Shown here: one piece after another, positions 3,886 through 60,577 of the stretch | How positions within the stretch are numbered: the first letter of the stretch is position 1 | Layout of the letters: every line of letters starts with the position of its first letter | Assembly (NCBI GenBank): GCA_045627525.1 | Contig: JAZQNW010000001.1 | Location: forward strand, 120,270 to 184,269 | From: Bacilli bacterium | Lineage (GTDB): Bacteria > Bacillota_I > Bacilli_A > RF39 > UBA660 | Direction of reading: 5' to 3' | DNA: 64,000 bases | The notes under the pieces: model-generated | The model's input: only the letters and a program-made list of their open reading frames with translations | The model's database searches: none | What the model was told of the DNA's origin: nothing | Position numbers and translations under genes: made by a program

Positions 3886-4587
3886 CTAAATCATTTCAGA
3901 AATATAAACTGTCTGATGATAGTCATCATTTTTTGTACAAGTAATTAAAGTTAGCGTTGTTTTTTCGTAGTTTCTAGCTATTTTTACAGTCCCTACTTTA
4001 TCAACATTATATTTGTTTACTAATTTATATTGATACTTATTACCACCATAAGTAACAAAAATATCATCACCTATATTTAATTTATATAAATAAGCAAAAA
4101 ACGAAATATAAGCATCACCAGAATGTGCAATTAAAATTAAATTTCCATTTACAACATCTGGCATTGTAGACCCACTAACCAAAGTCACATTGTACTGAAT
4201 ATTATTGTACTTTGAATCAAGACCGTAGAACCCTCTTTTTAATCCTATTTTTGGTATTTCTAATACTCCTAAATATTTATCATAATTAATAGTATATGTT
4301 TGTGCCGGTTCAGAAGGTTGAGGAGATTCCACTACATCATTAGCAACAGGAACCTCTTCAATTACTTCTTCTTTTTCTTCGACCGGTTCTTTAGTAGCAT
4401 CAGAAATTAATATTTGCATATCTGAAAACACAGAATTACGTAACATCAATAAATGATTACCAGTCAAAACAAAAACACCCACAAATACAAGCAAAGAGCC
4501 AAATAATAATATATGACTCTTTTTAATTTTATTTTTTTTAATTAGTTGCTTTTGGTTTAGCATTTGCATAAATAATACCAACACCAC
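3886..4587 (-). CDS. Sortase (class B/pilus-type-like cysteine transpeptidase)
   Basis: An N-terminal TM anchor is followed by a catalytic His region (LILIAHSG) and the TLITC cysteine motif (TLTLITCT). It lies immediately downstream of a VPDTG-motif surface protein. Confidence 0.8.
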   Translation of the reverse strand: MVLVLFMQMLNQKQLIKKNKIKKSHILLFGSLLVFVGVFVLTGNHLLMLRNSVFSDMQILISDATKEPVEEKEEVIEEVPVANDVVESPQPSEPAQTYTINYDKYLGVLEIPKIGLKRGFYGLDSKYNNIQYNVTLVSGSTMPDVVNGNLILIAHSGDAYISFFAYLYKLNIGDDIFVTYGGNKYQYKLVNKYNVDKVGTVKIARNYEKTTLTLITCTKNDDYHQTVYISEMI

Positions 4588-5758
4588 TTAATAGAACTAT
4601 TAGACCAATAAAGTAAACTGTTTGAGCAGTTGACATACCTGTATCAGGCACTTTTAAAACAAACTCATTTGTATCTTCAACATTTGAAGTAGTAATAAAT
4701 ACATTTGTAACTGTTTGAGCTTTTATATCAGTAGTACCAGTAGTATCTTTATATGTTCCTTCAAATTTATATCCAGAATAAGTCTTTACTCCATTTGCAA
4801 CTGCTGTAAATTTAACAGCATTAGCTTTATCAGTAACAGAAGATACAGGAATTCTTATATAAAATTTAACATTTGGTTGAATATTGTTTAAATTTTCAAT
4901 TTTATTACCATTTTCATCAACAACATATGCACCCTTTGGGGCAGTAGTTAATTTAAGACTATATGAATCAAATGGATTATTAGCTGTAACACTAATTAAT
5001 GAAGTTTGATAGTATTTTTGATCTTCACTAATATTAACAGTATTATCAAAGTTAATTCCAAATTTAACTTTATCAATACCTTTAGCAGTAACATCAGATG
5101 AAACTTTCTTAGCAGCTGTCACTACAGGTTTAATATAATTTTCATATAAATTAACATTTTGTTTTATTGGTTCACCTTCACTATCAGCAATACCATTAAC
5201 TTTCATTACATCAGCTTCATTTACTTGCCCTAAATAAAGCCAAACAGCAATTTGAGAAAGCCATGTTTGAAGTTCTTCATCTGATTCAGTAAGACCATCA
5301 AAATTTTTATTTGGATAAATATTAGCCATTAAATACAATAAACCATAACCTTCAGGTCCAGTTATCTCAGTTGTACGAGACAATTCAACATTAGCAGCAT
5401 ATCCACGATCATGCTCTAAACAAAATATATGGTATGGATCTGTGCCACTAGCAGGATTTGTTATTACTGCTGAATAAGGATAAACTCTTAAAGGACTATT
5501 AGTAACTGGTGTACCATTTACTAGAGGAATTATAGTATCACCTGCTTCTTGAGTTCTAATCTTCATAGTATTTGAAGGAAATACCTTTGTCGGATTTACT
5601 TCCTCAGCAAAAGATGTTTGATCCAAACCAATAACAACTAATGACAATACGGCAACAAATACTAACGTTACTGAAGCCATTGCTATTTTTGAATTTGAAA
5701 TTTTTTGAAATAAATTTTGTTTTTTATTATTATGTTCTTCCATATAAATTTTTTCCAT
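4538..5758 (-). CDS. Cell-wall-anchored surface adhesin with a thioester domain (Cpa/TED-like), sorting signal VPDTG plus TM plus charged tail
   Basis: The C-terminus reads VPDTG, then a hydrophobic helix, then KPKATN. A signal peptide is present. The candidate thioester Cys is in HIFCLEHDRG and the Gln in the TQxA(I/V)W-like motif SQIAVW. The start is probably the internal ATG (MEKIY...) with RBS aggtagg. Confidence 0.7.
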   Translation of the reverse strand: MEKIYMEEHNNKKQNLFQKISNSKIAMASVTLVFVAVLSLVVIGLDQTSFAEEVNPTKVFPSNTMKIRTQEAGDTIIPLVNGTPVTNSPLRVYPYSAVITNPASGTDPYHIFCLEHDRGYAANVELSRTTEITGPEGYGLLYLMANIYPNKNFDGLTESDEELQTWLSQIAVWLYLGQVNEADVMKVNGIADSEGEPIKQNVNLYENYIKPVVTAAKKVSSDVTAKGIDKVKFGINFDNTVNISEDQKYYQTSLISVTANNPFDSYSLKLTTAPKGAYVVDENGNKIENLNNIQPNVKFYIRIPVSSVTDKANAVKFTAVANGVKTYSGYKFEGTYKDTTGTTDIKAQTVTNVFITTSNVEDTNEFVLKVPDTGMSTAQTVYFIGLIVLLSGVGIIYANAKPKATN

Positions 5759-5818
5759 ATCATAACCTACCTTTACAAAATCATTATAACACAAATTATT
5801 TATTTTAAAACACTTTTT

Positions 5819-7527: not shown

Positions 7528-8055
7528 TTATGATACTTTTCCATTATCATAAGCTTTATACTTTTTAATAGCAATAATAGCGGAAGCCATTTCTAAAATA
7601 TTACCTATAACTATAATATAAGCTCCAACATATACATTATATATGCCCCATAAGAATCCACTAATTAACATAACCCATCTAATATATTTTGGATTTTTAT
7701 AATAAGTAGATACAAATAACAATATGTTAATAACAAGAGGCAATAATGATAAAACACCATCATAAAAAATAACAGAAACAAAAATCAACAACATGATAAA
7801 TATAATAAGTACAATTACTGGTATTTTTTTCTTCTTATTTTCAATATTTATAAAAACAAAATCTTTTACTTCTTCTAATACTTCTATTGACACTCCAGAC
7901 CAAGCACCCTTAATCACATATACAATTAAGTAACATATTGAAGCAAATATTTGAGTTATCAAAATATCTTTTTTCTTTTTAAACTGTACACTCATAACAT
8001 ATAAAAATATAGATGCTATAGATACAACATAATAAAGTATTGTTATAAAATTCAT
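7528..8055 (-). CDS. Hypothetical integral membrane protein (about 5 TM)
   Basis: Hydrophobicity pattern only. Confidence 0.4.
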   Translation of the reverse strand: MNFITILYYVVSIASIFLYVMSVQFKKKKDILITQIFASICYLIVYVIKGAWSGVSIEVLEEVKDFVFINIENKKKKIPVIVLIIFIMLLIFVSVIFYDGVLSLLPLVINILLFVSTYYKNPKYIRWVMLISGFLWGIYNVYVGAYIIVIGNILEMASAIIAIKKYKAYDNGKVS

Positions 8056-8273
8056 AATAATTCACCCAAATCTATTCTTTAAAATACTAAAATAATTATA
8101 CCACATTCCTAAACTAATTGCATAAATTTTCTTTTTTACCCGGTTCTTTTAATCCCAAATATTTATAAATTCCTGTTCTAGCATATATATCACCAAAATC
8201 ATTATAACATAAAAAAATCTATAAATACTTTGTACTTGTAACATCACAATTATATATACAGTTAATTCAACAA

Positions 8274-8302
8274 TAAAAGCAGATTACTCATCTGCTTTCT
8301 TG
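8274..8302 (-). terminator. Rho-independent terminator closing the XRE-to-SSB-like operon and the ssb remnant
   Basis: Hairpin aaagcagat-tactc-atctgcttt. It spans the stop codon of the ssb C-terminal remnant and is followed by T-rich sequence on the minus strand. Confidence 0.6.
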
Positions 8303-8409
8303 CTACTTAAAAATGTTATTTTTTCAGCAATTATATCAATTGAATATTTCTTTTCACCATTAATTTCATGACAATTTGATTGAACTCTTCCTTTAACTCC
8401 AACTAATGG
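8284..8409 (-). pseudogene. ssb: C-terminal remnant of a disrupted ssbB-like single-strand DNA-binding protein gene
   Basis: The minus-strand translation ...PLVGVKGRVQSNCHEINGEKKYSIDIIAEKITFLSSKKADE* aligns to the beta4-beta5 and C-terminal part of canonical SSB (GVDGRLQTRNYE...VTEV.AESVQFL). It has no start codon of its own. It lies in a different frame from the upstream 99-aa ORF. Confidence 0.65.
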
Positions 8410-8431
8410 TTTTTGATAATACAAAAATACA

Positions 8432-8731
8432 CTAAATTTTAAATAAAATATTGTTGTCTAGTTTAGAAACATAAGAGTCAACTATAATTTTAAATCCCCA
8501 TTTAGTATCAATGTGACCACTAATTGCGATACTTTCGTTTTTACATTTTTTTAAATGTTCATAGTCAGGGTTTTCAAATATTACTGGAATATTATATTTA
8601 ATGTTTTGATCATTATCAGATTCTACATTAATAATCATTTTTACTGCTTTATTATTATTCGACTTTATTTTTATCATATTTGATTTTACTCTTCCAATTA
8701 ATAAAACCTCATTATTCAAAGTATTTTTCAT
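8432..8731 (-). CDS. Minimal SSB-like OB-fold protein (divergent, no acidic C-terminal tail), last gene of the inserted operon
   Basis: The N-terminus (NEVLLIGRVKSNMIKIK...AVKMIINVE) resembles the SSB beta1-beta3 region, and the later segment (ISGHIDTKWGFKIIVDSYVSKL) resembles beta4-beta5. A strong RBS (ggaggaa) precedes the ATG. It starts 24 nt after the zinc-ribbon nuclease gene. Confidence 0.5.
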   Translation of the reverse strand: MKNTLNNEVLLIGRVKSNMIKIKSNNNKAVKMIINVESDNDQNIKYNIPVIFENPDYEHLKKCKNESIAISGHIDTKWGFKIIVDSYVSKLDNNILFKI

Positions 8732-8754
8732 TTCCTCCTCACCCCCTATTATAA

Positions 8755-9640
8755 TTATTTACAATATGGACAATTAGTACCTCGTACTCTATATCTTATT
8801 TCAGCTTCCCATTCATGTCCTTTATCACATTTCCACCATACTTTTTTATGTGATCCATTGGTAAACATTTGAGGAATCATTGTTTTATTTTTTTCATAAT
8901 TCCATTCTTTACATAAACTATAATTTGTTGTCATTAAATCGTTGTAACCAACTAATACTTTTTTGTTATTACAATATGGGCAATTAGTCCCACTTATTCT
9001 ATTATAAATAGTTGCTTCCCATTCATGTCCTTTACCACATTTCCACCATACTTTTTTTCCTGAACCACTTTTTAAATCAGTTGGTTTAAGGTTATTATTC
9101 TTCTCATAATTCCATTCTTTCAGTAACAAAGGATTTGTCGTTGCTAAATCATTAATACCTTTTATAGCAGATCTTCCTGAACAATATGGACAACTATTTC
9201 CGTGTGTTCTAGAGTTTATTGTTGCTTCCCATTCATGTCCTTTATTACATTTCCACCATACTTTAAAATTAGACGATTTAGTATAATTTTCTGGATTTTG
9301 ACTATTTTTTTCATAATTCCATTCTTCAATTAACTTAGCATTAGTTGTTCTCAAATCATTAAAACCAAATAGTACTTTTTTACCAGCGCAGTATGGACAA
9401 CCACTTCCTCTTGTCCTTGAAGATACAGTAGCTTCCCATTCATGCTTTTTATCACATTTCCACCAAACCTTAATATCAGATCCAGAATAAATACTCTCAG
9501 GCTTCAAATCTTTATTCTTTTCGTAATTCCATTCTTCTTTTAAATATGAATATTCAACTGCTACAGATTTTTTTTCTAATGCTAACATATAACTTGCTCT
9601 TATATTACTTTCCTCATTGTCTAAATCAAATTTTTTAGTT
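8755..9640. repeat. Intragenic tandem DNA repeats, about 207-210 bp period and 4-5 copies, encoding the zinc-ribbon modules
   Basis: The motif gcttcccattcatgtcctttatcacatttccaccatac recurs near 8804, 9014, 9224 and 9431. This matches the roughly 69-aa protein repeat (EWNYEKN...KVWWKC.KGHEWEA...CPYC). Confidence 0.7.
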
Positions 9641-10416
9641 AAAGGTATATAAGTTTCTAATTCATTAATTACTCTATAAATTTCGTCATTGTTTGGATGT
9701 CGTTTGATAGTTATATAAATATCAGCAGTATCTTTTTCCCCAAGATAGTTTTCTTTAACCCTTATTAGTTTTATTTCATTTTTTTTACAAATATCATATT
9801 TTTTCTTTTCTTTTATATATGAGTCAGTTCCATCATGCCATAGTTCTCCATCATATTCAATTCCTATTTGAAGAGATGGTATATAAATGTCAATTTCCAT
9901 TCCATTGTTAAATATATCATTATATCTATTTACTGTATCGGAATAATTCTTTCTTAAATAATAAAAAAGTACTTGTTCTGGATACGATGTTTGAGTTCTT
10001 TTGCTACAATTAGGACATCCAGTACTTAATGATTTATTATTTCTATTATGCGGAGTTGCTTGCCACTCATATCCGCAAACAGAACATTTCCACCAATATT
10101 TTTTTCCACTTCTTGGGGAAACTAAATCAGAAGATATTTCATTCTTTAGTTCATCAAATTCATTAGCCAATAAAGGATATAATGTTTTTAAATCATTAAC
10201 ACCTTTTATCGCTAATCGCCCAGAACAATAAGGACATTTATGGTTTATTCTTCTATTCACTTTTTGTTTCCAACTATGACCTTTTGTACATAACCACCAT
10301 ACTTCTTTTTCTGAACCAGTAGTCAATTTACTTAAATCGATATTATTATTTTTATTATAATCCCATTGGGACATTAATTCTTTATTGTCAGTAACAAACA
10401 TACTCAAGTTAATCAC
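8755..10416 (-). CDS. Multi-zinc-ribbon protein with a central Vsr/DUF559-like PD-(D/E)xK endonuclease core. Two zinc-ribbon modules lie N-terminal of the core and about five lie C-terminal.
   Basis: About seven repeats of W-x-C-x(2,3)-H-x-W...C-P-x-C (for example KVWWKCDKKHEWEATVSSRTRGSGCPYCAGK) form treble-clef-like zinc ribbons. The central segment MEIDIYIPSLQIGIEYDGELWH...NEIKLIRV matches the Vsr/DUF559 signature (D...IEvDG..H...hhRh). The start is non-ATG (GTG or TTG) or the internal ATG. Confidence 0.6.
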   Translation of the reverse strand: MINLSMFVTDNKELMSQWDYNKNNNIDLSKLTTGSEKEVWWLCTKGHSWKQKVNRRINHKCPYCSGRLAIKGVNDLKTLYPLLANEFDELKNEISSDLVSPRSGKKYWWKCSVCGYEWQATPHNRNNKSLSTGCPNCSKRTQTSYPEQVLFYYLRKNYSDTVNRYNDIFNNGMEIDIYIPSLQIGIEYDGELWHDGTDSYIKEKKKYDICKKNEIKLIRVKENYLGEKDTADIYITIKRHPNNDEIYRVINELETYIPLTKKFDLDNEESNIRASYMLALEKKSVAVEYSYLKEEWNYEKNKDLKPESIYSGSDIKVWWKCDKKHEWEATVSSRTRGSGCPYCAGKKVLFGFNDLRTTNAKLIEEWNYEKNSQNPENYTKSSNFKVWWKCNKGHEWEATINSRTHGNSCPYCSGRSAIKGINDLATTNPLLLKEWNYEKNNNLKPTDLKSGSGKKVWWKCGKGHEWEATIYNRISGTNCPYCNNKKVLVGYNDLMTTNYSLCKEWNYEKNKTMIPQMFTNGSHKKVWWKCDKGHEWEAEIRYRVRGTNCPYCK

Positions 10417-10425
10417 TTCTCCTTT

Positions 10426-11097
10426 TTATAAATCATTACATACTTTTCCAACTTCATATAAGATATCACTTTCATATATTTTATTAAAATTTGAAAATTT
10501 AATTCTACTTAGTTTTCTAAAAAATGGATGATCTATTTGATTTAAATATGCATAATTAGATATATCATTTATTATACAATCAAATAGTTCGTTTACTTCC
10601 TTTATTAGCGAAATCAACTCATATGAATCTATATAGTATTCGTACGTAACGTTCTCATGTTCATTTGTTTCTTTATTAAAAATAGCATCATTAACTTTAA
10701 GACCGAACTTAAACCAGCTATCATTTCCAGAATAATGCGACATTATCTTTGCATCGTGAAGTTTATGTTCATATTTATTTCTAATCTTTTTAATTTTTAT
10801 TAAAACTTCTTTATTATTTATAATAATTTGCTCATATTTTTGTTTTAAATATGGAAGTGATTCATCAAATTCTAATAACCCATCTTTTTTAATTAATTTT
10901 ACTTTTTTTTCATTTACAGAACAATATGGAATTATTCTCGGAATATCCTGAATCAAGTCTAATATTACTTTTGAACCAACATTAAAATCATCTATTGCAT
11001 CCGAACCACATAATTTTATTAATCTTTTATTTGATGTATACAAAACATCTATATATCCATAAATCGCATTAAAGATACTCTCATCCATTTTTTCCAC
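10426..11097 (-). CDS. Hypothetical 223-aa protein with an R-x4-H motif (RNKYEH), possibly a HEPN-like RNase or abortive-infection protein
   Basis: No strong family match by eye. The only motif is R-x4-H in KIRNKYEHKLHD. It starts at GTG or ATG with an RBS (agaggt or aggtgg). It is tightly packed between the XRE gene and the zinc-ribbon gene. Confidence 0.35.
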   Translation of the reverse strand: MEKMDESIFNAIYGYIDVLYTSNKRLIKLCGSDAIDDFNVGSKVILDLIQDIPRIIPYCSVNEKKVKLIKKDGLLEFDESLPYLKQKYEQIIINNKEVLIKIKKIRNKYEHKLHDAKIMSHYSGNDSWFKFGLKVNDAIFNKETNEHENVTYEYYIDSYELISLIKEVNELFDCIINDISNYAYLNQIDHPFFRKLSRIKFSNFNKIYESDILYEVGKVCNDL

Positions 11098-11133
11098 CTC
11101 TACCTCTTAATTATATCATAAAGATGAATATCC

Positions 11134-11418
11134 TTACTCTTCTTGCATAAAGCTATATGTTCTAATTTTTTTAGTATTTCTTTTTAAAATAATTTTGTCA
11201 TTTAAATGATTATCATAAAAAATATCATCTGGATACATTTTAAAAATAGAAGAAATTTTAACTGCCATAATATAATCTAATTTTCTTTTTCCATTTTCTA
11301 TTTGACAATAATATGAAATACTGATTTTCAACATCTTAGCCATATCACTACAGGTATAATTATTAACTTTTCTAAATTGCTTTAAAATTTCATACATATA
11401 CATCACCATAAAAAACAT
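11134..11418 (-). CDS. XRE-family helix-turn-helix transcriptional regulator, first gene of the inserted operon
   Basis: Classic HTH_XRE signature (YTCSDMAKMLKISISYYCQIENGKRKLD). The true start is probably the internal Met (MYEILKQF...). Confidence 0.75.
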   Translation of the reverse strand: MFFMVMYMYEILKQFRKVNNYTCSDMAKMLKISISYYCQIENGKRKLDYIMAVKISSIFKMYPDDIFYDNHLNDKIILKRNTKKIRTYSFMQEE

Positions 11419-11540
11419 TACCGCAAATAATTGAAAAAATCCGCTATTTTTTTACAAATAGGAAAATAATTTAAATTTGAAAGGAGGCTTGATATTTAAG
11501 AAAGTAAGTAGTTATAGGGAAAATTCATTGCATATCCGGA

Positions 11541-11562
11541 AACTATATCCCAACTATATCCC
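11541..11562. repeat. Perfect 11-bp tandem duplication (AACTATATCCC x2) at the right junction of the insertion
   Basis: Positions 11541-11551 and 11552-11562 are identical. The first copy creates the premature TAG (cta at 11543-11545) ending the ssb N-fragment. Confidence 0.8.
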
Positions 11563-11764
11563 CCTTAGAACAATAATTAGATGTATTTTCTGCTACATTT
11601 TCAAAAGCTATACAATCTATAAAATCTGTATCATAAGTACCATCCATATTTTTAAAACTCCTTGGTATAGCCAAAGGAATAGTTGCGACTTTTTTACCTC
11701 CTTCTGATTTATTAATTTTAATATCTCGCGTTAATCTTCCAACCAAAACTATTTGATTTAACAT
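11543..11764 (-). pseudogene. ssb: N-terminal fragment (73 codons) of an ssbB-like SSB gene, truncated at the insertion junction
   Basis: MLNQIVLVGRLTRDIKINKSEGGKKVATIPLAIPRSFKNMDGTYDTDFIDCIAFENVAENTSNYCSKGDIVGI* aligns to the first roughly 70 residues of bacterial SSB ([21 protein letters not shown]...ADFINCV.W...AENVANFLKKGSL.GV). It has a strong RBS (gggaggtg) and stops abruptly at TAG. Confidence 0.7.
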
Positions 11765-11854
11765 ATTTCACCTCCCTTCACAAAGATGATATACAATAAT
11801 ATAAAACTCTACAAATGATCATTTTTAGTATTTGATCATAAATAATGAATAAAA

Positions 11855-11890
11855 AAAAAGAAATTTCCTAAACGAAAATTTCTTTTTTAA
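11855..11890 (-). terminator. Terminator of the suf operon (after sufB)
   Basis: Hairpin agaaatttc-ctaaacg-aaaatttct followed by T-run on minus strand. Confidence 0.55.
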
Positions 11891-11925
11891 TATTATATAT
11901 ATTAATAAAATACAACTTTAATACC

Positions 11926-13239
11926 TCATAAATTTCTTTTTATTAATTGATTTAACTCAACTGCATATTCCATAGGTAATTCTTCTCTAAATCTTTCTAG
12001 AAAGCCTAATACTATTAATTCCATTGCTCTTTCTCTAGAAATGCCTCTACTCATTAAATAGAATAAATTTTCTTCACTTATTTTTGAAACAGTAGCTTCA
12101 TGCTCAATACTACTGCTCATATTAAAGCATGAATTAACAGGTATTGTATCACTTTTAGATTTTTCATCTAAAATTAAAGTATCACATTTAACATTGCTGT
12201 TACTATTTAATGCTCCACTATTAATTAATACTTTGCCACGATAAGTAGCATTACCACCATCTCTAGAAATACTCTTAGAAATTATATTGCTCTTCGTATT
12301 TTTACCTAAATGAATCATCCTAGCACCACTATCTTGTTCTTGACCATTGTTAGCAACAGAAATAGTAATACAAGTACCATTAGAATTATCCCCCTTTAAT
12401 ACACAACAAGGATATTTCATAGTTACCTTACTACCTATGTTACCATCAATCCACTCCATAGTACCATTTTCATCTACTAAAGCTCTTTTTGTAACTAAAT
12501 TGTAAACATTAGTAGCCCAATTTTGAATAGTAGAATAACGACATTTACTATTCTTCCCAACATAAATTTCTACAACAGCTGCATGTAAAGATGACTCACT
12601 ATAAGTAGGAGCAGTACATCCCTCAATATAATGCAAATCACTATTATCATCAACTATAATTAATGTTCTTTCAAATTGCCCCATATTTTTACTATTGATT
12701 CTGAAATAACTTTGTAATGGTCTATCTAAAACAGTGTTAGGTGGTACATAAATAAAGCTACCACCACTAAATACAGCACCATTTAATGCAGCAAATTTAT
12801 TTTCATTATTATTAACAATTTTGCCAAAATATTTTTTTACTAAATCAGGGTATTCCTTCATAGCAACTTCAATTGAAGTAAAAATAACTTTTTTCTTTTC
12901 TAATTCTTCTATCATTTTATGATAAATTACTTCACTCTCATACTGAACACCCATACCACCAAGATGTTTTTCACTTTCTAAAACACCCAGATCATTTAAT
13001 TCATCCTTTACAGGTTTTAAAACATTATTCCAATCACTTTGAATTTTTTCATCTGCCTCAGTATTTTTATAATATATAACATCATCAAAATTAAGATTTA
13101 TTTCAGGACCAAATTTAGGCATTTCTAGTTTCAGAAATTTATTAAAACTATCAACACGAAAATCCCTAACCCAAGAATCTTCATTCTTTTTGTTAGAGAT
13201 TTTTTTTACTTTATCTAAATTAATCCCTTTTATTTCCAC
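11926..13239 (-). CDS. sufB: Fe-S cluster assembly protein SufB
   Basis: The conserved C-terminal SufB/SufD motif (LFYLMSRGISRERAMELIVLGFL) and beta-helix core are present. It lies in sufC-D-S-U-B order. Confidence 0.9.
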   Translation of the reverse strand: MEIKGINLDKVKKISNKKNEDSWVRDFRVDSFNKFLKLEMPKFGPEINLNFDDVIYYKNTEADEKIQSDWNNVLKPVKDELNDLGVLESEKHLGGMGVQYESEVIYHKMIEELEKKKVIFTSIEVAMKEYPDLVKKYFGKIVNNNENKFAALNGAVFSGGSFIYVPPNTVLDRPLQSYFRINSKNMGQFERTLIIVDDNSDLHYIEGCTAPTYSESSLHAAVVEIYVGKNSKCRYSTIQNWATNVYNLVTKRALVDENGTMEWIDGNIGSKVTMKYPCCVLKGDNSNGTCITISVANNGQEQDSGARMIHLGKNTKSNIISKSISRDGGNATYRGKVLINSGALNSNSNVKCDTLILDEKSKSDTIPVNSCFNMSSSIEHEATVSKISEENLFYLMSRGISRERAMELIVLGFLERFREELPMEYAVELNQLIKRNL

Positions 13240-37017: not shown

Positions 37018-37395
37018 AATAAACAATAAATATAAATAAGCCATGTTCTGTTCCTAGTAAACTAGGCGACAAACATTTATCTACTAATTTCTTAGTCCCT
37101 AACTCCATTCATTTTTTTTGTTAGGACTCCCCTACCAAATTTGGGTTTCTCGCTCGCGGGGTTTACCACGTTTCACTCTTTCGTTTCCAAAAGCATCGTC
37201 ACTGCGGCACTTTACAGTATAAATCATATCAAAAAGACTTAGATTTATTAACCGCCGTTAGTAAAAACTACCCTAGGTTATTTTTTCCCTAGGCACGATC
37301 ACTACAGACATCTCAGTCTGTGCGAGCATGGACTTTCCTCAAGGATCTCAAGAATCCCAGCGTTTGTCTATATATTAATTGTTATTATCTCTTCT
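37018..37395 (-). ncRNA. rnpB: RNase P RNA, bacterial type B
   Basis: The minus strand contains GAGGAAAGUCCAUGCUCGCAC (P4 5' strand), ...GUGAAACGUGGUAAACCCCGCGAGCGAGAAACCCAAAUUUGGUAGGGGA... and ...AACAGAACAUGGCUUA, nearly identical to the B. subtilis rnpB conserved regions. The GC-rich island lies between gpsB and rodZ as in Bacillus. Ends are uncertain by about 20 nt. The 5' region probably overlaps the gpsB stop. Confidence 0.85.
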
Positions 37396-60375: not shown

Positions 60376-60570
60376 AACTATCCTCCATAAGGACGAATAG
60401 TTCGCGGTACCACCTTACTTCATAGTAAAACTATGCACTCAACATCTTAACGCGATATACGATTTTCTCATAATAATGTAATTCATGATTAACTGATATT
60501 AGTTTCCACCAAACACTAATTCTCTATAAAATGCAATAAATCACTACTAAGTTATTAATCATCAAAAATA
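60376..60570 (-). promoter_or_regulatory. T-box riboswitch leader (Tyr specifier UAC) controlling the CYTH-tyrS operon
   Basis: The minus strand carries the conserved T-box AAGGUGGUACCGCG, with UGGU complementary to the acceptor end and an A discriminator. Stem I has AGUGA/AGAGA GA-motifs and a specifier loop GAAUUACA (UAC is Tyr). The terminator helix CUAUUCGUCC...GGAGGAUAG is followed by UUUUUUU. Confidence 0.75.
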
Positions 60571-60577
60571 TAAAAAT

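Follow-up and report, generated by a model that had tools for sequence, protein, structure and literature searches.

What kind of enzyme is encoded by a bacterial gene that joins an array of zinc ribbons to a Vsr-like nuclease core, and what does its position inside another gene tell us about its role? This question is raised by a 64-kb window from the genome of a Bacilli bacterium (64,000 nucleotides; contig JAZQNW010000001.1, positions 120,270 to 184,269 of the forward strand), where a 553-aa protein with this architecture is encoded on the minus strand at 8755..10416 (all coordinates below are those of the window). The gene lies in a 3.15-kb insertion, hereafter the cassette, that was acquired horizontally and that split and inactivated a non-canonical 109-aa ssb paralogue. 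We slightly favour the view that the 553-aa protein is a free-standing, homing-endonuclease-like, site-specific selfish DNA endonuclease, because it is related to homing endonucleases, because members of its family are encoded by phages and giant viruses, because its homologues have no conserved partner gene and because the cassette is inserted in a conserved block of a gene for DNA metabolism.

The nuclease gene and its zinc-ribbon modules

The open reading frame (ORF) of the 553-aa protein is uninterrupted over the interval given by an initial annotation made from the sequence alone, and its domains were defined from the ORF, Pfam matches and homologues: a pair of DUF4379 zinc ribbons, then the Vsr-like nuclease core, then four further DUF4379 zinc ribbons. 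DUF4379 (PF14311), which Pfam describes as a "probable treble clef zinc finger domain", matched the protein in six stretches (E 1.4e-115, 377.9 bits against a cut-off of 24.5, by Pfam hidden Markov model (HMM)). Motif and HMM mapping placed module 1 at aa 16-65 (10222..10371; ligands C-x3-H ... C-P-Y-C) and module 2 at aa 85-138 (10003..10164; C-x2-C ... C-P-N-C) on one side of the core, which is of the Vsr-like, EDxHD type (aa 139-292, 9541..10002), and modules 3 (aa 294-344, 9385..9537), 4 (aa 364-413, 9178..9327), 5 (aa 433-483, 8968..9120) and 6 (aa 503-553, 8758..8910) on the other, all on the minus strand. The zinc ligands are complete in 6/6 predicted zinc ribbons, with five of the CHCC type (C-x3-H...C-P-Y-C) and one of the CCCC type (C-x2-C...C-P-N-C). 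The repeats and their W-W-x-C-x2-3-H-x-W...C-P-x-C motif, both noted initially, are real, but they amount to six modules (2 + 4) instead of about seven (2 + 5).

The repeat period in the DNA is 207-210 bp, in agreement with the roughly 207 bp first proposed. The modules had also been described as near-perfect repeats that expanded recently, and this does not hold: the C-terminal modules are only 59-67% identical to one another as protein and 66-76% as DNA, Tandem Repeats Finder detected no tandem array within the nuclease gene, and each module is closer to a module of another family member (identity 0.56-0.73) than to any within the 553-aa protein (0.43-0.67). Together these three results rule out a recent tandem expansion. 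Since the modules resemble those of other proteins more than each other, they are, as judged from these identities, old components of the family. In the 119 best homologues, the position of the nuclease within the module array varies (e.g. 5+5, 6+2, 4+6).

The core resembles Vsr-type and EDxHD-type nucleases

The central segment that had been singled out (MEIDIY...GIEYDGELWH...IKLIRV) is present, and an exhaustive search for relatives of the 154-aa core returned 2974 clusters at 50% identity (E <= 1e-3). In an alignment of 44 diverse family members, the invariant columns are S6, Y15, E36, D38, E49, D51, G52, H56, K68 and R81, which correspond to S144, Y153, E174, D176, E187, D189, G190, H194, K206 and R219 of the 553-aa protein; the conserved core residues comprise E147, E174, D176, E187, D189, G190, H194, E203, K206 and R219, among which E147, D176, H194 and E203 are invariant or majority residues across the 44 sequences. 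The family profile matched the catalytic domain of the homing endonuclease I-Bth0305I (PDB 3R3P) with E 9e-4. When searched individually, 31/44 family cores matched the Pfam family REase_MTES_1575, 25/44 DUF2726 and 3/44 DUF559, and 3/44 matched the Vsr-like N-terminal domain of PvuRts1I; MTES_1575 has been defined as a novel restriction-endonuclease fold of the Vsr family (PMC3710099).

A model of the core that was obtained with AlphaFold2 from the family alignment had a pLDDT of 91 and a pTM of 0.85. Using an alignment with 3R3P and a published description of the active-site residues (PMC3239194), we mapped E147 to I-Bth0305I E170 and Vsr E25, D176 to D196 and D51, H194 to H213 and H69, and E203 to D222 and D97, the last being a conservative substitution, while D189 falls at the position of I-Bth0305I N208 and Vsr H64. 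Altogether, the profile matches, the conserved residues and the predicted structure support the assignment of the core, already suggested by the initial annotation, to a Vsr/DUF559-like PD-(D/E)xK-type nuclease fold of the EDxHD type in which the predicted catalytic constellation is intact; both the fold and the catalytic residues, on which that call depended, were found. HMM searches recovered DUF4379 above its gathering threshold, and the core of the 553-aa protein matched neither Vsr nor DUF559 (PF04480) in Pfam. As for the proposal that the zinc ribbons are nucleic-acid recognition modules, DUF4379 ribbons do flank the core, and DNA binding is plausible.

These data also bear on whether the protein might be catalytically inert or domesticated, for instance a DNA-binding regulator or a relic with no current role as a nuclease. 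It is the shortest among its top matches, with the fewest modules (6, against 8-12 with a median of 10 in the 119 best homologues), and it has no close relatives among those found, both of which would fit such decay. We nevertheless judge it improbable that the protein is inert, as all the catalytic positions that are invariant in the family are intact, the ORF is uninterrupted and the zinc ligands are kept in all six modules.

The cassette interrupts a conserved block of an ssb paralogue

The cassette (8406..11549, minus strand), which was delimited by allele alignment, synteny, Rfam searches and analysis of its ends, contains four co-oriented and tightly packed ORFs. Upstream of it lies the 5' fragment of the disrupted ssb paralogue (11543..11764, minus strand; Pfam SSB E 8e-16, and tblastn), consisting of the N-terminal 73 codons (11764-11546) and a stop codon supplied by the cassette, and downstream of it lies the 3' fragment (8287..8406, minus strand, from allele alignment), consisting of the C-terminal 40 codons (8406-8287), which are residues 70-109 of the reconstructed protein. 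The junctions were set by alignment with intact ssb alleles, and the 7-bp direct repeat TAGTTGG flanks the insert exactly, with one copy at the upstream ssb/cassette junction (11550..11556) and the other at the downstream cassette/ssb junction (8399..8405), both on the minus strand. The reconstructed uninterrupted site reads ...GGGGATATAGTTGGAGTTAAAGGAAG..., and that of relatives ...GGTGATATTGTTGGTGTTAAAGG....

A scan of ssb alleles with one genome per species identified 80 loci where a contiguous and intact 109-aa ssb (53-83% identity) is found; the genomes belong to uncultured relatives among the gut Bacilli or are of the "Mycoplasma sp. CAG:877" type. Its neighbours are those of the window on the sufB/D side in 56/80 loci and on the side of the GNAT and pyrimidine-nucleoside-phosphorylase genes in 58/80, and none of the four cassette genes has a homologue in any of the 80 loci. 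The insertion that had been thought to disrupt ssb is borne out by the split fragments and by these intact syntenic alleles; the paralogue is a pseudogene in this genome, and the 64-kb window contains no second ssb. The cassette entered the codons that specify GD-IVG|VKGR, where conservation of the ssb paralogue is highest: residues G68, G72, K74, G75 and R76 of this block are invariant in 20 relatives.

Several known vehicles were considered for the cassette. An intron is rejected: no Rfam model of a group I or II intron matched in 7900-12000, whether gathering thresholds were applied or E was relaxed to 10, the only non-coding DNA in the cassette (~130 nt and 26 nt) is too short for a ribozyme, and the boundaries fit neither group. 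An intein is excluded by stop codons. Just downstream of the upstream TAGTTGG, there are two tandem copies of the 9-mer GATATAGTT (GATATAGTTGG-GATATAGTTTCC; 11540-11560, minus strand), which may be the footprint of a templated or microhomology repair. This tandem at the upstream (left) junction, together with the exactly flanking repeat and with the absence of any recombinase among the four cassette ORFs (ORF list and Pfam), could be accommodated if the nuclease were the mobilising enzyme of a 3.15-kb, nuclease-only, transposon-like element, a staggered cut at TAGTTGG being filled in to give the 7-bp duplication. That scenario seems very improbable to us: comparison of the cassette ends revealed no terminal inverted repeats, the window contains no second copy, none of 145 fetched loci has a related cassette, homologues are not set in a conserved cassette, and the repeat could equally be the attachment core of an integrase acting in trans or a microhomology used in end joining. 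Vsr-like nucleases are also not known to act as transposases, which counts against it too.

No match to the cassette DNA was found in phages, a plasmid collection gave only matches to the zinc-ribbon repeats, and scans of viral contigs for the 223-aa protein encoded upstream of the nuclease gene and for the 99-aa ORF downstream of it were empty. Promoter and terminator scans did no better than on shuffled sequence.

Two further observations concern the edges of the insertion. At 11477-11549 (plus strand), a GGAGG ribosome-binding site and a TTG start point out of the upstream end of the cassette, diverge from the gene for its XRE-family regulator and read over the junction into antisense ssb. 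They may be what is left of the 5' end of a gene cut off at the junction, in which case the cassette would seem to be part of a larger element. A gene for a YgjV-like inner-membrane protein (PF10688, E 1e-18) separates ssb from the GNAT gene at 7528-8055 (minus strand), and the closest relatives (loci L001-L004), where ssb ends ~140 bp before GNAT, leave no room for it, making this a second variable spot beside the insertion.

A large family shared by gut Firmicutes, phages and giant viruses

The combination of zinc ribbons and nuclease core had been presented as undescribed. It is in fact covered by existing records: PHROG 559 ("HNH endonuclease") matched the 553-aa protein with E 1e-65 over zinc ribbons plus core, PHROG 681 ("endonuclease") also matched the protein, and PHROG 3339 ("homing endonuclease") matched the core only. 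A Lausannevirus paper reported proteins that join four DUF4379 domains to a restriction-endonuclease domain (PMC5513546), and a 2025 NAR paper described intron-encoded phage homing-endonuclease genes that combine three to five CapR/DUF4379/DUF723-like modules with an EDxHD/Vsr-like nuclease. Its authors place thousands of relatives that lack annotation in a large outgroup of homing endonucleases that had gone unrecognised (PMC12350094). The 553-aa protein is an ordinary member of this recently recognised, large and biochemically uncharacterised family and does not represent a system of a new kind.

The full-length relatives exceed 8000; most have 600-960 aa and come from metagenomes of gut Firmicutes, and where they are named the label is "zinc-ribbon domain-containing protein". 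The family ranges over gut Firmicutes, Bacillus plasmids, phages and giant viruses. Relatives are found in 175 phage records, including T5-like, Listeria and Klebsiella phages, under labels that vary between homing, HNH or GIY-YIG endonuclease and DUF4379. Among predicted viral structures, the core model matched a "treble clef zinc finger" protein of a Listeria phage, zinc-ribbon proteins of Klosneuvirus and Terrestrivirus, and "homing endonucleases" of Staphylococcus and Enterococcus phages.

Two loci illustrate other arrangements. In one (L086, 5001-9554), two DUF4379/Vsr-like nuclease genes stand in tandem (914 and 587 aa) and adjoin genes for a NERD/topoisomerase-zinc-ribbon protein and a 1497-aa protein. 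In Sporosarcina phage Lietuvens (L152, 3680-4726), a 348-aa DUF4379 protein is encoded between the DNA helicase and primase genes, a typical site for a free-standing homing-endonuclease gene. No copy of the Vsr-like core was detectable in this protein (E above 0.01), and it therefore seems that a DUF4379 array can be joined to other partners or stand without one.

A probable homing-like endonuclease and the points that weigh against it

If the 553-aa protein is a homing-like, site-specific endonuclease, its zinc ribbons (two on one side and four on the other) would bind DNA as a modular array, recognising a long target and positioning the nuclease over it. Cleavage would be Mg2+-dependent with H194 as general base, as in Vsr and I-Bth0305I. 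For both strands to be cut the enzyme would have to dimerise, which has been reported for I-Bth0305I (PMC3239194). The nuclease may itself have made the break that admitted the cassette.

Several observations weigh against this interpretation. Two depart from classical homing: the nuclease gene lies outside any intron or intein, and its insertion destroys the host gene ssb. Free-standing homing-endonuclease genes are known, however, so the absence of an intron does not exclude homing-like behaviour. The 7-bp repeat is not expected from homologous repair of a double-strand break and looks more like the product of staggered-cut fill-in, an attachment core or microhomology. The core of the 553-aa protein, searched alone against Pfam, gave only a sub-threshold match to REase_MTES_1575 (E 0.16), and both the nuclease activity and the target of the protein are predicted. 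Metagenomes contained no relative with more than 51% identity to the nuclease and thus no sign of a recent spread. Finally, some nuclease homologues adjoin defence genes: type I HsdR with an FRG protein, and NERD.

Neighbouring genes and a possible defence cassette

Three other genes make up the cassette, all on the minus strand. The first (11134..11418) encodes the 94-aa XRE-family helix-turn-helix (HTH) regulator (Pfam HTH_19 E 1e-9, HTH_3), the only cassette protein that matched PADLOC-DB v2, and this with generic HTH models only; neither the nuclease nor the two remaining proteins matched any defence model of that database. The second (10426..11097), which stops 9 bp short of the nuclease gene, encodes the HEPN-like 223-aa protein. 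Its family consists of 48 proteins of ~208 aa that have no Pfam domain and in which R106-x4-H111, a motif of the HEPN type (cf. Rx4-6H), is invariant. Elsewhere, what follows its members varies (a TIR protein, a DpnII restriction-modification system, a 631-aa protein of unknown function), a conserved 124-aa ORF or a KilA-N protein frequently lies ahead of them, and none adjoins a DUF4379 nuclease in the loci examined. The 223-aa protein may be the product of a defence or abortive-infection gene not described before. The last ORF (8432..8731), here ORF99, is an orphan of 99 aa that hit only itself among 5.8 billion proteins. It had been called SSB-like, a label that we could not substantiate: ORF99 has no SSB match in Pfam or NCBIfam, and an hhalign comparison with a local SSB profile gave a weak match over 39 N-terminal columns with a probability of 18.6%.

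The XRE, HEPN-like and SSB-like genes that the initial annotation proposed to look for were not found beside its homologues elsewhere: by tblastn, none of the XRE, 223-aa, ORF99 and SSB proteins recurs in 61 loci of nuclease homologues. A Pfam tally of 115 neighbour proteins was heterogeneous (nuclease homologues lie beside integrases, resolvases, HNH nucleases, methyltransferases, IS66 and IS6 transposases and restriction-modification genes), and the 221-aa gene found upstream of the homologue with the closest core is unrelated to the 223-aa protein. A conserved four-gene system is rejected on these three grounds.

This context gives the main rival to a homing-like enzyme, in which the 553-aa protein would be a stand-alone, restriction-like defence nuclease in a mini defence cassette with the XRE regulator and a HEPN-like RNase, attacking invading phage or plasmid DNA, possibly modified, rather than serving its own spread. 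The invariant Rx4H motif of the adjacent 223-aa protein, the TIR proteins and the DpnII system beside its homologues, the HsdR/FRG and NERD neighbours of nuclease homologues described above, the matches of 3/44 cores to PvuRts1I, which is modification-dependent, and the operon-like packing of the four cassette genes all speak for it. We nonetheless consider a defence role unlikely, though worth keeping in mind: the nuclease and the 223-aa protein are without a PADLOC match, nuclease homologues lack a conserved partner or methyltransferase, phages and giant viruses themselves carry many of the relatives, which are labelled homing endonucleases, and an array of 6-12 DNA-binding modules would be better suited to a long specific site than to restriction of broad range.

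Significance

Although ~3000 clusters at 50% identity carry this core, no member has been biochemically characterised. An insertion whose empty site is exactly defined in 80 related genomes is a natural experiment in which intact ssb is the candidate target, and the main value of the locus is that this ready-made candidate target, the intact ssb allele, is available for the first biochemical test of a large family. More speculatively, the DUF4379 modules could form an array that reads DNA position by position, like zinc-finger or TALE proteins, and the nuclease alone could drive insertion of multi-gene cassettes into conserved coding sequence, intron-free and leaving a 7-bp duplication. We think that this is a long shot; if true, it would represent a previously undescribed route of nuclease-driven mobility, and modular DNA reading by zinc-ribbon arrays would offer a possible new scaffold for engineered nucleases.

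Other features of the window

Away from the cassette, the window contains a class B RNase P RNA (287 bits) at 37032-37376 and a T-box leader (101 bits) at 60386-60571, both on the minus strand, and no tRNA gene anywhere in its 64 kb. A sortase gene overlaps the end of a gene for a 418-aa surface protein (3886-5794, minus strand) with a membrane anchor at its C terminus and a weak match to a thioester domain (E 9e-4).

Comparison with known systems

I-Bth0305I (PDB 3R3P), one of the nearest known enzymes, is an EDxHD homing endonuclease with N-terminal NUMOD/HTH motifs and a C-terminal nuclease, encoded in a group I intron of a phage recA gene (PMC3239194). In the 553-aa protein, zinc-ribbon arrays flank a central nuclease and D189 replaces N208, and its gene is part of a multi-gene cassette on a bacterial chromosome, without an intron. 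Compared with Vsr (PDB 1CW0) and DUF559 proteins (PDB 3HRL), identity is only 14-15% and six zinc ribbons are added, and the core lacks the intercalating tryptophans of the T:G-mismatch machinery described for Vsr (PMC3239194).

Going by their description, the CapR/DUF4379/DUF723-like genes with an EDxHD/Vsr-like nuclease also combine several zinc-ribbon-type modules of ~60 aa with a Vsr-like nuclease (PMC12350094). Those enzymes are encoded in group I or II introns of phages and carry their three to five modules ahead of a C-terminal nuclease, whereas the protein described here is bacterial and free-standing and has 2 + 4 modules around a central nuclease. Similarly, the "putative restriction endonucleases" of Lausannevirus and Insectomime (ISTM_159; PMC5513546) and the proteins of PHROG 559/681/3339 are viral and not chromosomal and differ in the number and order of modules, but share with the 553-aa protein the combination of several DUF4379 modules and a restriction-endonuclease-like domain.

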